A DNA stretch of 64,000 nt from Nitrospirota bacterium (GTDB lineage Bacteria; Nitrospirota; Thermodesulfovibrionia; Thermodesulfovibrionales; JdFR-88). The translations under genes and the position numbers were made by a program. Of this stretch, positions 3,269 through 19,986 are shown in pieces. The notes beneath the pieces are model-generated. The model made no database searches. It was not told where the DNA came from and saw only the letters and a list, made by a program, of their open reading frames with translations. Every line of letters begins with the position of its first letter. Positions within the stretch are counted from its first letter, which is position 1. The stretch is from positions 4,871-68,870 of the forward strand of contig JAJYJK010000001.1 of assembly GCA_021789555.1 (NCBI GenBank), given 5' to 3'.

Positions 3269-4648
3269 ATGCTAGTCAGGATCAGGCCGTTTCTGGACGT
3301 CGGCAAAATTTCAAGGGCCCTGGAGCGGGCCACGGAGCTTGATGACCGTCCGATAAAGGAGTTCGAGACCGCCTTTGCCCGCCGGCTCGGGGCCCCCGGC
3401 GCGGCGGCCGTTGACAGGGGCAGGTCCGCCCTTCTGCTTGCCCTGAAAACATTGGGCATAAAGGGAGGTGATGAAGTCATCGTTCAATCTTATATCTTTC
3501 ACGTGGTTGTTGACGCCATACTGGAGCTTGGCGCCAGACCGGTGCTCGCGGACAGCCGCCTGGACGATTTCAATGTAGACCCCCGCGCAATCGAAAGGGG
3601 AATAACCCCCAGGACAAGGGCGATCATCGTGACCCATCTCGGCGTTCCATGCGATATGGGAGAAATCAGCGCCATTGCCCGGAAACATGACTGCTATCTC
3701 ATAGAAAACTGCGCCCATACGCTTGATGCCCAGTGCGATGGGAAAAAGGCAGGCGGGTTCGGAGACGTGTCGTTCTACAGCTTCGATATCGACAAACCGA
3801 TTTCGACCGGTGACGGCGGAATGCTCCTGATCAACAACGTCGACCTCCTTGAAAAGGCGCGCGGCATACTTGACGGCTACGGCAGGGTGCCTTTTGAAAA
3901 AGAGAAGCAGACCGTTTACGGGCTCCTTCTGCAACATTTTGTGACCGGTGATGGGGTTTATCCCGAAGACGGCTTCCTGCCGGTCGACTTCGGCAAGAAA
4001 GCGGTAAAAAAAGACCGGCGTCTGCTGTCGCTTGTGGAAAAGGCGGCATGCCAGGGGGGTACCGATGGATTCCGCGAGCGCATATTGCCTTATCTGCAGC
4101 GCAATCGCCTGCTATGCGAAAAAAAATCCCGGACCGGAGATATCATTTCAAGGGCCGCCAGTCGGGCAGGTGTTGCCCTTGGCCGGATGAACATACCGAA
4201 AATAGATTCCCCCCTCCTGTTGATGAATTCCCTCAGGAGCGCGGTCGGCATCGAATGCCTGAAGGATTTTGACAACTGCAAGGCACTCCGGGACCAAAAC
4301 ACGCAATATTATATCGACCATCTGGACACGGCCGCATTCGGACACCCGCGGATAGACAAAGGGAAAAAGACCGCCTTCATCCGGTATGCCGTTTTGAACA
4401 ATACGGGGTGCGAAAATTCCCGGATTACCGCAGCGGCAAGGAAACGGGGGTTCGAAATAGGCATCTTCAACTGGAGCGCGCCCGTCCACCTGTGTTATCC
4501 CTACAACAGGCTGCTGGATTTCGAACGGTCAAAATTACATAACAGCGAGCATCTGGGCAGGAGGCTCCTCAGCCTCCCGGTGCATCCCTACGTCGGCGAG
4601 GAGGCACTGGAGAGGATATGCCGCTTCCTGAACGGTTTCACCTCCTGA
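3269..4648 (+). CDS. DegT/DnrJ/EryC1/StrS-family PLP-dependent sugar-modifying enzyme with a long C-terminal extension
   Basis: Family motifs: GGDEVIVQSYIFHVVVDAI, FNVDP, AIIVTHLGVPCDM, ENCAHTL and FYSFDIDKPISTGDGG (candidate Schiff-base Lys). It resembles the protein at 31264-32358. Confidence 0.7.
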   Translation: MLVRIRPFLDVGKISRALERATELDDRPIKEFETAFARRLGAPGAAAVDRGRSALLLALKTLGIKGGDEVIVQSYIFHVVVDAILELGARPVLADSRLDDFNVDPRAIERGITPRTRAIIVTHLGVPCDMGEISAIARKHDCYLIENCAHTLDAQCDGKKAGGFGDVSFYSFDIDKPISTGDGGMLLINNVDLLEKARGILDGYGRVPFEKEKQTVYGLLLQHFVTGDGVYPEDGFLPVDFGKKAVKKDRRLLSLVEKAACQGGTDGFRERILPYLQRNRLLCEKKSRTGDIISRAASRAGVALGRMNIPKIDSPLLLMNSLRSAVGIECLKDFDNCKALRDQNTQYYIDHLDTAAFGHPRIDKGKKTAFIRYAVLNNTGCENSRITAAARKRGFEIGIFNWSAPVHLCYPYNRLLDFERSKLHNSEHLGRRLLSLPVHPYVGEEALERICRFLNGFTS

Positions 4649-4672
4649 ACGGTTTCACCTCCTGAACGGTTT
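4627..4672. repeat. 17-nt direct tandem repeat, about 2.7 copies (cctgaacggtttcacct), spanning the stop codon of the upstream gene
   Basis: Copies at 4627-4643 and 4644-4660 are identical, and a partial third copy lies at 4661-4672. The TGA of the 3269-4648 gene (4646-4648) lies inside copy 2. Confidence 0.9.
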
Positions 4673-4678
4673 TGCCGA

Positions 4679-17466: not shown

Positions 17467-18284
17467 TGGACGCAATCATTTCACACGATGTAGACCACAT
17501 CACGGTTTGGGAGCACAGGAGAGATTTGATACTGCCCAAACACATCATAAGAAACTGCATCGAGTTCGGCCTTAAATATATCACCCTGGACGAGGTAGCC
17601 GGGCGCCTCAGGGACATAATGCGGAACAAATGGAACAACCTTGAAGCGCTGATGCAGTTTGACAAGGAGAAGGGGATCCCCGCCACATTTTTCTTCGGCA
17701 TGCAAAACGGCGTCGGGCTTTCATATGCGCTTCAGGACGCGAAGCCCTGGATGGAGAAGGCGACTGAAGAGGGTTTTCCCATAGGCGTTCACGGAATGGC
17801 ATTTGAACGCCTGGAGGAGATGAGGAAGGAATTCGATGCCTTTGCCGCACTGACGGGGCTCGGAGGCTTTGGGATAAGAATGCATTACCTAAGGAGAAAC
17901 GCCGAAACCCTGATCAATCTGGAAAAGGCCGGATACCGGTTTGACAGTTCGGTCCAGCAGTTGGCGTCTCCCTACAGGGTTTCGGATCTCTGGGAATTCC
18001 CGCTGCATATCATGGACGGCAGAATTTTGTGCAGAAACGGCCGCTGGCAGGACCAGACCCTTGAGCAGGCCAAGGACTCCACGAAGGCCCTGTTGGAGGA
18101 GGCGGTCAAACGCGGGATAGGATATTTCACGATTTTACTTCATGACAGGTATTTTAGCGACAGCTTCAGGACATGGAAGCAGTGGTATGTGTGGACCACG
18201 GAATTTCTGAGGGACAACGGCTTCAAATTCATAAGTTTTAACGATGCCATCGAAGAACTGGAAGACGTCCATGCCGCACATTAA
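17466..18284 (+). CDS. Polysaccharide-deacetylase-like protein (short form)
   Basis: The GTG at 17466 overlaps the upstream TAG by 1 nt. VDAIISHDVDHIT, GIPATFFF, PIGVHGMAF, ILLHDRYF. The ORF-track start at 17274 lies inside the upstream gene. Confidence 0.45.
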   Translation: MDAIISHDVDHITVWEHRRDLILPKHIIRNCIEFGLKYITLDEVAGRLRDIMRNKWNNLEALMQFDKEKGIPATFFFGMQNGVGLSYALQDAKPWMEKATEEGFPIGVHGMAFERLEEMRKEFDAFAALTGLGGFGIRMHYLRRNAETLINLEKAGYRFDSSVQQLASPYRVSDLWEFPLHIMDGRILCRNGRWQDQTLEQAKDSTKALLEEAVKRGIGYFTILLHDRYFSDSFRTWKQWYVWTTEFLRDNGFKFISFNDAIEELEDVHAAH

Positions 18285-19986
18285 GGACAGTTGCCCATAT
18301 CCCATCCCGGCTAACATGCGAAGCGCTATCGGCAACAATGCCCTTATGCTGCGCCGGGATGCCCGTTCATTTTTCTGGCAGGACGACCGATACAAGGTGT
18401 ACTGGGAAGGGCTGGTCTTCGTAAGCGGAATCCTGTCCGGGGCCGAGTCCGTCAAGGCTTTTATCGCGGGCCTCGAAAAAACGGCGATCGAGGACGCCTG
18501 CGGCATCCTCAAAGGTATTTACTTTTTTATCATCGAATCAAAAAAAGGCGGCGATATCCACGCGTTTATCGATAATTCCGGATTATACCAGGCGTTTTAC
18601 ACATCCGGAAAGATATCGAATTCCTTCCTGGAATTGGCCGCGCATGAAGGTCATACCGCAGCCGATTTTGAACCGGATGCCGTCGTCGAATTCCTGAATT
18701 TCGGCTCCCTTCTGTCCGGGGAAACGTATTTATCTTCTATCAGGCGCATTCGCCATGACGAAATACTTCGCCTCCCGCGCCCCGGCGCGAAACTTTTGTT
18801 CATAAAAAAGAAGAATGCCGGCCTCCGAACGTCCCCGGATATCCACCCGAAATCATTCGAGCAGCATTTCCACGAACTTGCGGCGTCGCTTGGAAACTGC
18901 AGAGTCAGCATAGACCTGACCGGCGGTGCGGACACCAGGCTGGTGGCGGCGATGCTGGACCACTGCGGCCTGCAATTCGAGGCCGCCTCATCCGGGGGGA
19001 CATCCGAATATGCGGACATCTCGATGCCGAGGGAAATCGCCCGCGCCATGGGTCATCCCTGGTTCGGCACGATACATTCCGCATCTGCGCTGCAAGACGA
19101 CATAAATGACCTGCTTGCCGCAACAGACGGCCTGTACGACATCCTCTATTACCACCGGCTGTATCAACTGCAAAAGGCCAGAAAAAAACGTGGCATCGAC
19201 ACGATGATTTCGGGAGTCGGGGGGGAGCTGTTCAAGGATTACTGGTGGCTGCATGAATTTCCATTTTATCGCCGTAAAACCTCAGATGTAAAAAAACTCG
19301 TAAATATGCGAATCATGCCGTCTCGCCCGCTCCTGGGGATTTTTTCCAAAAGATACGCCGGCCCGGGCGGCAATTTGAAAGACAACCTTGTCCGGTCATT
19401 CTCCCGATATGTCATGGATACCAACACCAAAACCCTGGATAACATCTTTTACAACGCAATTATGCGCAATATGGCCGGACGTATATTGACGTCTCACACC
19501 CGCTATGTGAAATGTCTCGCGCCGTTTCTTGACCCCGACCTCGCTACAATGGGCTTCAATCTTCCGAGGATGCAGCGTTTTTATAATTTTTTTCACAGAA
19601 GGGAACTTACAAAAATCAATCGACGGCTCGCAAGGTTTAAGACATCCGAAAATGGTATGACCTTATCATATAGGCCAGCCGACATTTTGCTGGACCTGCC
19701 GCGGTATATCGGCGAAAAGGGCAAAAGGGTATTGATAAAATTGCGGCTCGCCCAACGGGGCGGACCGTCGTCTCTTAACGATCCCGCCTGCTATCCGCAG
19801 GTCCGAAACATGAAGCTCATGCTCGAATCGTTAGACGCATTAAAGGATGCCCGGATAATAAATAAGGACGTCCGGCTGCATCAACTGGCGGACAGCCGCC
19901 TGGGTTCTTTTCTCACGCTTGGAATGGTTGCGGCGGCTCTGGAGCGCGGGGCGCGCGGCGGGCAAATGAGAATAGACCGGCCCTGA
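18244..19986 (+). CDS. AsnB-related PP-loop protein lacking the N-terminal catalytic Cys
   Basis: PP-loop-like SIDLTGGADTRLVAAML and an AsnB-like C-terminal region (LAPFLDPDL). There is no MCG start, so glutaminase activity is unlikely. The start is uncertain (18244 or ATG 18271). Confidence 0.55.
   Translation: MPSKNWKTSMPHIKDSCPYPIPANMRSAIGNNALMLRRDARSFFWQDDRYKVYWEGLVFVSGILSGAESVKAFIAGLEKTAIEDACGILKGIYFFIIESKKGGDIHAFIDNSGLYQAFYTSGKISNSFLELAAHEGHTAADFEPDAVVEFLNFGSLLSGETYLSSIRRIRHDEILRLPRPGAKLLFIKKKNAGLRTSPDIHPKSFEQHFHELAASLGNCRVSIDLTGGADTRLVAAMLDHCGLQFEAASSGGTSEYADISMPREIARAMGHPWFGTIHSASALQDDINDLLAATDGLYDILYYHRLYQLQKARKKRGIDTMISGVGGELFKDYWWLHEFPFYRRKTSDVKKLVNMRIMPSRPLLGIFSKRYAGPGGNLKDNLVRSFSRYVMDTNTKTLDNIFYNAIMRNMAGRILTSHTRYVKCLAPFLDPDLATMGFNLPRMQRFYNFFHRRELTKINRRLARFKTSENGMTLSYRPADILLDLPRYIGEKGKRVLIKLRLAQRGGPSSLNDPACYPQVRNMKLMLESLDALKDARIINKDVRLHQLADSRLGSFLTLGMVAAALERGARGGQMRIDRP

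Follow-up and report, generated by a model that had tools for sequence, protein, structure and literature searches.

The DNA analysed here is a 64,000-nucleotide stretch (hereafter the window) from an uncultured Nitrospirota bacterium, covering positions 4,871 to 68,870 of contig JAJYJK010000001.1 in assembly GCA_021789555.1, and its positions 3269 to 19986 form the core of a ~40-kb surface-polysaccharide operon. Three diverged gene modules in this operon probably share one logic (we put the probability at about 0.6), by which a free sugar amine is exposed or created and is then N-acylated by a FemAB/Acetyltransf_6-type transferase; module A would do so in the manner of the Wbp/Vim pathway, and modules B and C by analogous routes. 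From ~4 kb upstream of the window through position 36041, nearly all of the called open reading frames (ORFs) lie on the + strand and abut or overlap each other. Based on Pfam and NCBIfam profile matches, the operon contains three FemAB-like transferases, three CE4-type deacetylases, four DegT aminotransferases and three AsnB-like enzymes. A first-pass annotation of the sequence had described recurring cassettes of such genes. All the genes that it named are intact + strand ORFs of the guessed families, as indicated by profile matches and, for the genes at 17466 and 30368, by predicted folds. The recurrence is real and had been undercounted, as a third CE4 gene at 928, a full AsnB gene at 12092 and a Cys-less AsnB-like gene in 1-882 were missed. 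The recurring genes are, however, not repeats of one cassette and belong to three anciently diverged orthologous groups.

Module A is of the VimA/VimE type, homologous to the Wbp/Vim pathway, and lies in one operon with WbpB-, WbpD-, WbpE- and WbpI-like genes. In Porphyromonas gingivalis and Tannerella forsythia, WbpA, WbpB, WbpE and WbpD make UDP-2,3-diacetamido-glucuronic acid, VimE has been proposed to take off the 2-N-acetyl group, and WbpS makes the uronamide (PMC7468200; PMC13086638). VimA adds Ser or Gly, and when VimA was exchanged between species, Gly was attached in place of Ser (PMC7468200). The order suggested by the first-pass annotation, in which deacetylation is followed by re-acylation by a FemAB-type enzyme and amidation by an AsnB-type enzyme, is that of this published pathway (VimE, VimA and WbpS; PMC7468200). 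Module A is read as the same pathway because the window encodes counterparts of all of its enzymes except WbpA, including Wbp-route genes, a deacetylase combining DUF7033 with CE4, an adjacent FemAB/TIGR03019-like transferase and an AsnB-type amidotransferase. On the other hand, the window differs from the known systems in its Nitrospirota host, in the lack of WbpA from the locus, in a deacetylase that scores below the VimE cut-off, and in the presence of the non-orthologous modules B and C and of two Cys-less AsnB-like genes without counterpart. The view that such decorations go beyond ordinary O-antigen chemistry appears overstated, as aminoacylated and amidated 2,3-diamino-uronic acids have already been described (PMC7468200; PMC12041961).

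Two adjacent genes make up module A. FemAB1 (4679..5650, + strand), a VimA-type transferase matching PF13480 (E 7e-17) and PF02388, ends 45 nt ahead of a VimE-type deacetylase (5696..7066, + strand), which contains DUF7033 and a CE4-like domain (PF23019, E 9e-31). The deacetylase matches the VimE model NF053580 (E 3.6e-58) with 197 bits over profile positions 60-427 of 431. Seven other members of the family, including those of Bacteroidota metagenome-assembled genomes (MAGs), also score just 155-210 bits, which indicates that the VimE model is narrow; the protein is a VimE homologue, not an equivalog. Across 45 homologues, there is no variation at D187, D189, H292, H297, R333, H335 and H437. 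A literature search on DUF7033 found no paper. The models NF053579 and NF053581, whose accessions flank that of VimE, were considered as possible VimA models and rejected, as they represent unrelated families.

The Wbp-route genes lie further downstream and comprise a WbpB-like 3-dehydrogenase (24390-25391, + strand; GFO_IDH_MocA, and UDP-GlcNAc 3-dehydrogenase NF040723 at 178 bits), a WbpD-like hexapeptide N-acetyltransferase (25388-25867, + strand; Pfam Hexapep) and a WbpE-like DegT aminotransferase (28237..29436, + strand; DegT E 2.6e-106, with the Lys present). This trio is 38-43% identical to the trios found beside VimA/VimE-like pairs, which is a family-level match. Two WbpA-like candidates are encoded on contigs C35 and C40 of the same genome, a 2.85-Mb assembly in 108 contigs; they are 47% and 44% identical to the enzyme of a Picosynechococcus locus. 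Each of these two contigs also carries a full AsnB gene beside the WbpA-like dehydrogenase, hence they represent further polysaccharide loci.

A scan of species genomes detected the VimE-like protein in at least 548 of them, distributed in many phyla. Its gene neighbourhoods were counted in the 80 best species loci, 73 of which had room upstream. At least 23 of these 73 loci, which come from other species, have a FemAB1-like gene immediately ahead of the VimE-like gene, a recurrence of neighbours beyond chance; the count is a minimum, as in one case a divergent Acetyltransf_6 was missed. Within 8 kb of the VimE-like genes, WbpE-like, WbpD-like and WbpA-like genes were present in 28, 24 and 19 of the 80 loci, respectively. 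In Picosynechococcus PCC 11901 and in locus L011, a FemAB1 orthologue (52% identity) is directly followed by a DUF7033 gene (45% identity), and these pairs lie among WbpA-, WbpB-, WbpD-, WbpE- and 2-epimerase-type genes. Veith et al. had reported in 2020 that vimA and vimE stand side by side, together with Wbp genes, in Pseudomonas, Aeromonas and Vibrio, and that exosortase loci contain genes for FemAB, deacetylase and AsnB proteins (PMC7468200). Where a FemAB1-like neighbour is lacking, as in L025, L024, L026, L044 and L058, the gene directly upstream encodes an ATP-grasp-like protein, an S-adenosylmethionine-dependent methyltransferase, an acetyltransferase of the Antibiotic_NAT family or an Acetyltransf_6 of divergent sequence. 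Varied neighbours of this kind fit a general role of the VimE-like enzymes in deacetylation followed by re-decoration, and the freed amine may receive different groups in different lineages.

Module B consists of a GT4 glycosyltransferase (15347..16468, + strand), whose orthologues in Caldicoprobacter and Scalindua (40-50% identity) stand immediately ahead of FemAB2-like genes, followed by the FemAB/Acetyltransf_6 transferase FemAB2 (16501..17466, + strand; PF13480 E 1.4e-12, PF02388) and by deac2 (17466..18284, + strand), a 272-aa divergent deacetylase-like protein. The deac2 gene starts at position 17466, not 17274, with a GTG codon overlapping the stop codon of FemAB2. No Pfam match was obtained for deac2, including none to PF01522, though a few of its homologues match that family. 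Its AlphaFold2 model (mean predicted local distance difference test score, pLDDT, 92.9) adopts a CE4/NodB fold, and a Foldseek search retrieved the mycobacterial polysaccharide deacetylase 3rxz (E 5e-8, template-modelling score (TM) 0.65) as well as HP0310, PuuE, WbmS and ArnD. The 1288 homologues of deac2 are mostly named hypothetical proteins.

This module recurs in Clostridia, Planctomycetota and metagenomes. The order GT4-FemAB2-deac2 is kept in Caldicoprobacter guelmensis, Ca. Scalindua and a Nitrospirota relative, with identities of 50-61% for the FemAB2 orthologues and 37-50% for those of the GT4; overall, the genes that precede deac2 orthologues share 50-62% identity with FemAB2. Neighbourhoods of module B were counted in 80 metagenome loci, including 58 with room upstream and 32 long ones. 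In 40/58 loci the deac2 homologue immediately follows a FemAB2-like gene, again more often than expected by chance, a GT4 gene of the 15347 type is located ~2.1 kb upstream of deac2 in 21/32 long loci, and a second GT4 gene is found just downstream in 22/32. In the Nitrospirota relative (L014:10800-14247), deac2 is followed by genes for a GT4, a PIG-L deacetylase, a PylC-like ATP-grasp ligase and a PHP protein where the window has a Cys-less AsnB-like gene; this looks like another set for glycosyl transfer, deacetylation and ligation.

Module C combines FemAB3 (30368..31267, + strand) with a short DegT-family enzyme dependent on pyridoxal phosphate (PLP) (31264..32358, + strand; DegT E 1.2e-57, profile match from position 48). 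FemAB3 has no Pfam match. Its model, examined by an Atlas structure search, shows a FemAB-like double-GNAT fold, with TM 0.66-0.67 to FemAB/Acetyltransf_6 clusters that include a PEP-CTERM-associated one, so that it is a putative FemAB-like protein on structural evidence only. The adjacency of FemAB3 and the short DegT gene recurs in L016, L018 and L101, at 54-59% and 66-69% identity, respectively. The Schiff-base Lys is present in all four DegT proteins of the window. The DegT protein at 31264 (364 aa) lacks ~50 N-terminal residues of the profile, as do its orthologues of 364-365 aa (for example, L016:10857-11954), and may represent a distinct DegT subfamily. An insertion after the PLP lysine is common to this protein and the long DegT protein at 3269.

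L016 and L101 are collinear with the window in the order AsnB, GT4, GT4, FemAB2, deac2, Cys-less AsnB, WecB, GT4, GT14, FemAB3 and short DegT. The window therefore holds a conserved block of 10-11 genes, into which two GT14 genes and the WbpB/D/E-like genes have been inserted. L016 (GCA_027414875.1) is a MAG labelled Actinomycetota; its copy of the block has 48-66% identity, with a sigma-54 regulator nearby, and could reflect horizontal transfer or an error of binning or labelling. The GT4 gene of the block that stands beside AsnB (14158..15357, + strand) is 58% and 48% identical to the genes at the same position in L014 and L016, and the UDP-GlcNAc 2-epimerase of WecB/WbpI type (19988..21124, + strand; TIGR00236 306.6 bits, cut-off 210) also occurs in this block in L016, L018 and L101.

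The three AsnB-like proteins are of two kinds. The first, encoded by ORF 12092 (12188..14107 on the + strand when the start is taken at Met-Cys; GATase_7 and Asn_synthase), begins with MCGI, scores 446 bits on TIGR01536 (cut-off 267) and 598 bits on TIGR03108, under the cut-off of 816.9; judged from these features, it is predicted to be a complete glutamine-dependent amidotransferase of the WbpS type. The other two lack the N-terminal Cys. One is a 602-aa protein (L009:3944-5752), whose C-terminal half occupies 1..882 of the window (+ strand); it matches TIGR01536 weakly (E 6e-8) and retains the PP-loop motif LTGGRDSR. The other, AsnBx2 (18244..19986, + strand), matches Asn_synthase only (E 2e-9), and the first-pass annotation was right that it has no catalytic Cys. 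This is a trait of its whole family of ~540-aa proteins (228 representative clusters at E<=1e-30): none of 125 full-length members starts with Met-Cys, while the PP-loop residues S222, D224, T226, G227, G228, D230 and R232 are nearly or fully invariant, which argues that the loss of Cys is a family trait and not decay. The AsnBx2 model (pLDDT 91.8) aligned over ~530-580 columns and both domains with ASNS, CarA, TsnB9, AsnB and beta-lactam synthetase, at Foldseek E values near 1e-11, a TM of at most 0.58 and 12-14% identity. The annotated ATG at 18244 overlaps deac2 by 41 nt, residues 1-17 of the model are disordered, and homologues begin ~25 residues ahead of the conserved YWEGL motif; the real start is probably Met25 at position 18316. 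Glutaminase-inactive AsnB homologues such as beta-lactam synthetase, carbapenam synthetase, TsnB9 and the lasso-peptide cyclases, which supply the closest structural matches of AsnBx2, likewise combine a two-domain AsnB fold with a kept PP-loop and no Cys nucleophile, whereas AsnBx2 belongs to a glycan operon, forms its own family and shares only 12-14% identity with them.

The paralogy among the modules had been recognised correctly in large part. FemAB1 and FemAB2 align with 30% identity (E 8e-32), and the two deacetylase cores with 25% identity over 208 aa (E 4e-9), having the HDVD and G-[VL]-H motifs in common. The DegT proteins at 3269 and 31264, taken earlier for two long paralogs, are indeed paralogous (28% identity, E 4e-40), but the latter is short. 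Between modules A and B, the transferases share ~30% and the deacetylases ~23% identity, whereas each is 50-67% identical to its own orthologues in other phyla. Recent tandem duplication as the origin of the cassettes is ruled out by this orthology pattern, which indicates ancient separate modules. VimE-like and deac2 genes were both found in only 2/151 sampled genomes of the phylum, namely that of the window and one of the same family, where they are again ~10.7 kb apart on one contig. Together with the 50-67% identity to other phyla, this rare occurrence points to horizontal spread of the modules.

Three genes that had been counted as cassette members, and a radical SAM gene, do not belong to the conserved modules. 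The long DegT gene (3269..4648, + strand; 459 aa with internal insertions, DegT E 4.7e-65) is confined to close Nitrospirae relatives, standing upstream of FemAB1 only in L019-L021, and the B12-binding radical SAM enzyme (1745..3244, + strand; Pfam Radical_SAM and B12-binding) has counterparts in just two MAGs of close Nitrospirae, L019 and L020, and is absent from L015. In the close relative L015/L014, the counterpart of the Polysacc_deac_1 gene at 928 is directly followed by FemAB1, and both the radical SAM and the long DegT genes are absent. Thus, these two genes are lineage-specific insertions. The Cys-less AsnB is a lineage-specific addition, as it directly follows the deacetylase gene in only 3 of the ~85 loci examined (those of the window, L016 and L101). 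The A-T-TE gene, which had been joined to the GNAT-DegT pair, was found in 0/80 of the module B metagenome loci, and none lies beside FemAB3-DegT in L016.

With regard to substrates, order of steps, acyl donor and final glycan, the following scheme is proposed. UDP-2,3-diacetamido-2,3-dideoxy-glucuronic acid would be the product of the WbpB-, WbpE- and WbpD-like enzymes of the operon, acting with a WbpA-like dehydrogenase from elsewhere in the genome, and the WecB-type epimerase could turn it into the manno form. The DUF7033-CE4 enzyme at 5696 would take off one N-acetyl group, and FemAB1 would attach an aminoacyl group, rather than a simple acyl group, to the amine thus exposed, with aminoacyl-tRNA as the presumed donor. 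Module B may carry out the same steps on another N-acetylhexosamine (HexNAc) residue, probably right after its addition by the GT4, using the shorter and divergent CE4-fold deacetylase. In module C, the amine would arise by transamination of a keto-sugar and then be acylated by FemAB3. AsnB 12092 would amidate the uronic-acid carboxyl with glutamine-derived ammonia, as WbpS does, and the Cys-less AsnB-like enzymes (18244 and the gene reaching into 1-882) may activate a carboxylate by adenylation and couple it to an amine independently of glutamine.

A number of observations weigh against this scheme. The 197 bits of the deacetylase at 5696 are well below the 440-bit VimE equivalog cut-off, so that the same substrate specificity is not established. 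FemAB1 is putatively of the VimA type, as judged from its family match and its position beside the deacetylase gene. A WbpA-type dehydrogenase was not found in the operon or the window, and the candidates on C35 and C40 could be of WecC type. In deac2, the place of the first metal-ligand His in CE4 motif 2 (H-x4-H; H292 in the VimE-like protein) is taken by a nearly invariant Phe (F104). H17, H109, H140 and H226 are invariant across the deac2 family, and the canonical Asp-His-His triad is not present; the chemistry of deac2 may therefore differ, and its metal site, if any, must be built differently. The nature of the acyl donor is a further point, as PF13480 is a GNAT-type family and an acyl-CoA donor is thus possible. 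The FemAB-like enzymes could then be ordinary GNAT N-acyltransferases using acetyl, 3-hydroxybutyryl or other short acyl groups, giving N-acyl decorations on the same architecture. This appears unlikely on the whole, though PF13480 is the strongest Pfam match of FemAB1 and FemAB2, these two are barely over the cut-off of the FemAB model PF02388 (28.5 and 27.8 bits versus 24), and no significant sequence match to a solved aminoacyl-tRNA-dependent enzyme was obtained (best E 0.018, 9wqy). The same search against solved structures gave nothing significant for FemAB1, FemAB2, the VimE-like protein at 5696 or AsnBx2. Moreover, many VimE-like genes elsewhere have upstream partners other than FemAB, encoding different acylating or modifying enzymes. 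On the other hand, the double-GNAT FemAB fold and length of ~320 aa resemble those of the tRNA-dependent FemX-type enzymes, and in the only studied system the identity of VimA determined whether Ser or Gly was attached (PMC7468200), which argues for aminoacyl transfer.

The modules may also serve more than one glycan, as Wzm/Wzt ABC-transporter genes and a Wzy_C gene are mixed in the operon. The region could then be a mosaic of at least two independently acquired polysaccharide pathways, one ABC-transporter-dependent with module A and one of Wzy type with modules B and C. We regard this as a possible arrangement but not the probable one. Wzm/Wzt and GT2 genes lie upstream and Wzy_C in the middle, the block of modules B and C with its 10-11 collinear genes occurs without module A in L016 and L101, module A occurs alone in cyanobacteria, and the presence of both modules in so few genomes of the phylum suggests horizontal acquisition. 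By contrast, nearly all genes from Wzm to 36041 are on one strand and mostly abut or overlap, the order of A followed by B is also seen in the relatives L015/L014 and G118, and the Wbp genes needed by module A sit inside the block of module B, all of which speaks against a mosaic. Action of the FemAB-like and deacetylase genes on peptidoglycan or its precursors, through interpeptide bridges or de-N-acetylation, is highly improbable. Some databases label homologues as 'lipid II:glycine glycyltransferase' or 'peptidoglycan/xylan/chitin deacetylase', but such labels are automatic family names; in all loci examined, the genes stand among those for glycosyltransferases, nucleotide-sugar enzymes, Wzm/Wzt and Wzy_C, and the operon contains no mur, pbp or fts genes.

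The three-module reading was also compared with other known systems. The exopolysaccharide gene set associated with XrtA/PEP-CTERM exosortases (TIGR03019 FemAB, TIGR03006 deacetylase, TIGR03108 amidotransferase, TIGR03097 ligase-like protein and TIGR03087/03088 GT4) shows the same combination of families. However, the window proteins score only 38.4 and 22.8 bits on TIGR03019 versus 260, give no match to TIGR03006, and reach 598 versus 816.9 on TIGR03108. An XrtW-like exosortase fused to EpsI (412.8 bits, cut-off 425) is encoded beside a TIGR03087-like glycosyltransferase on a separate 3.5-kb contig of this fragmented assembly, C38 (L001:1208-2716). The genome encodes at least six PEP-CTERM proteins, one of them on the same contig as the window, ~5.5 kb past its end (C99:74409-74483). 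No specific link between the modules and exosortases was seen: both genomes with the modules have an exosortase, as do 57 without them (59/151 in the phylum sample). Module B also has the step order of mycothiol and bacillithiol synthesis (MshA/BshA, MshB/BshB and MshC/BshC), where a HexNAc transferred by a GT4 is deacetylated and the amine so exposed receives an amino acid from a ligase or transferase; the neighbouring GT4 at 14158 scores 159 bits on BshA. We take this parallel to be a likeness in logic only; the deacetylase of module B is of CE4 and not LmbE type, the ligase is unrelated, and the context is that of polymer biosynthesis.

Clusters of vimA/vimE/asnB-like genes beside Wbp genes and exosortases are already known (Veith et al., PMC7468200). 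What is new is the presence of three distinct module types, two of them unannotated yet widely conserved, combined with Cys-less AsnB-like ligases in one operon. If the proposed logic is true, N-aminoacylation of amino sugars would be a modular and horizontally traded toolkit in many phyla and not a curiosity of Bacteroidota. As two of the three module types are annotated just as hypothetical proteins, their recognition would improve the annotation of polysaccharide loci, and the modules suggest enzymes able to install free amines or amino acids on glycans, which would be useful for glycoengineering. A more far-reaching and quite speculative reading, which we consider improbable, is that modules B and C are two uncharacterised multi-phylum glycan-aminoacylation systems which, with the Cys-less AsnB-like ligase, build peptide-like, lactam or cross-linked amide decorations, or display free alpha-amines as the exosortase acceptor for PEP-CTERM proteins. 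The latter role would parallel that of PorU, which joins cargo of the type IX secretion system to the Vim-made linking sugar. The modules also offer candidates for the long-open question of what exosortases attach PEP-CTERM proteins to. What is presented here is structure at the comparative-genomic level.

The remaining genes of the region are as follows. Before the window start, Wzm and Wzt ABC-transporter genes and a GT2 gene precede the 602-aa AsnB-like gene. The canonical CE4 deacetylase (928..1731, + strand; Polysacc_deac_1, PF01522, E 2.6e-8), the third deacetylase of the locus, follows this gene. Downstream of module A, Pfam/NCBIfam matches identified a GT2 (start 7075), a beta-helix protein (start 8018) and a GT4 (start about 9500). 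The Wzy_C polymerase/ligase-like membrane protein (10791..12185, + strand; PF04932 E 9e-22, TIGR03097 weak) is 41% identical to the product of a gene in the Scalindua locus. The sigma-54 response regulators and kinase of the window are generic, and their candidacy as PrsR/PrsK equivalogs was rejected. Beyond the 2-epimerase gene, a GT4 (start 21121) and three GT14 (starts 22344, 23333 and 29456) were found by the same profiles, and the A-T-TE protein (start 32495) and a phosphopantetheinyl transferase (PPTase; start 35298) follow module C.

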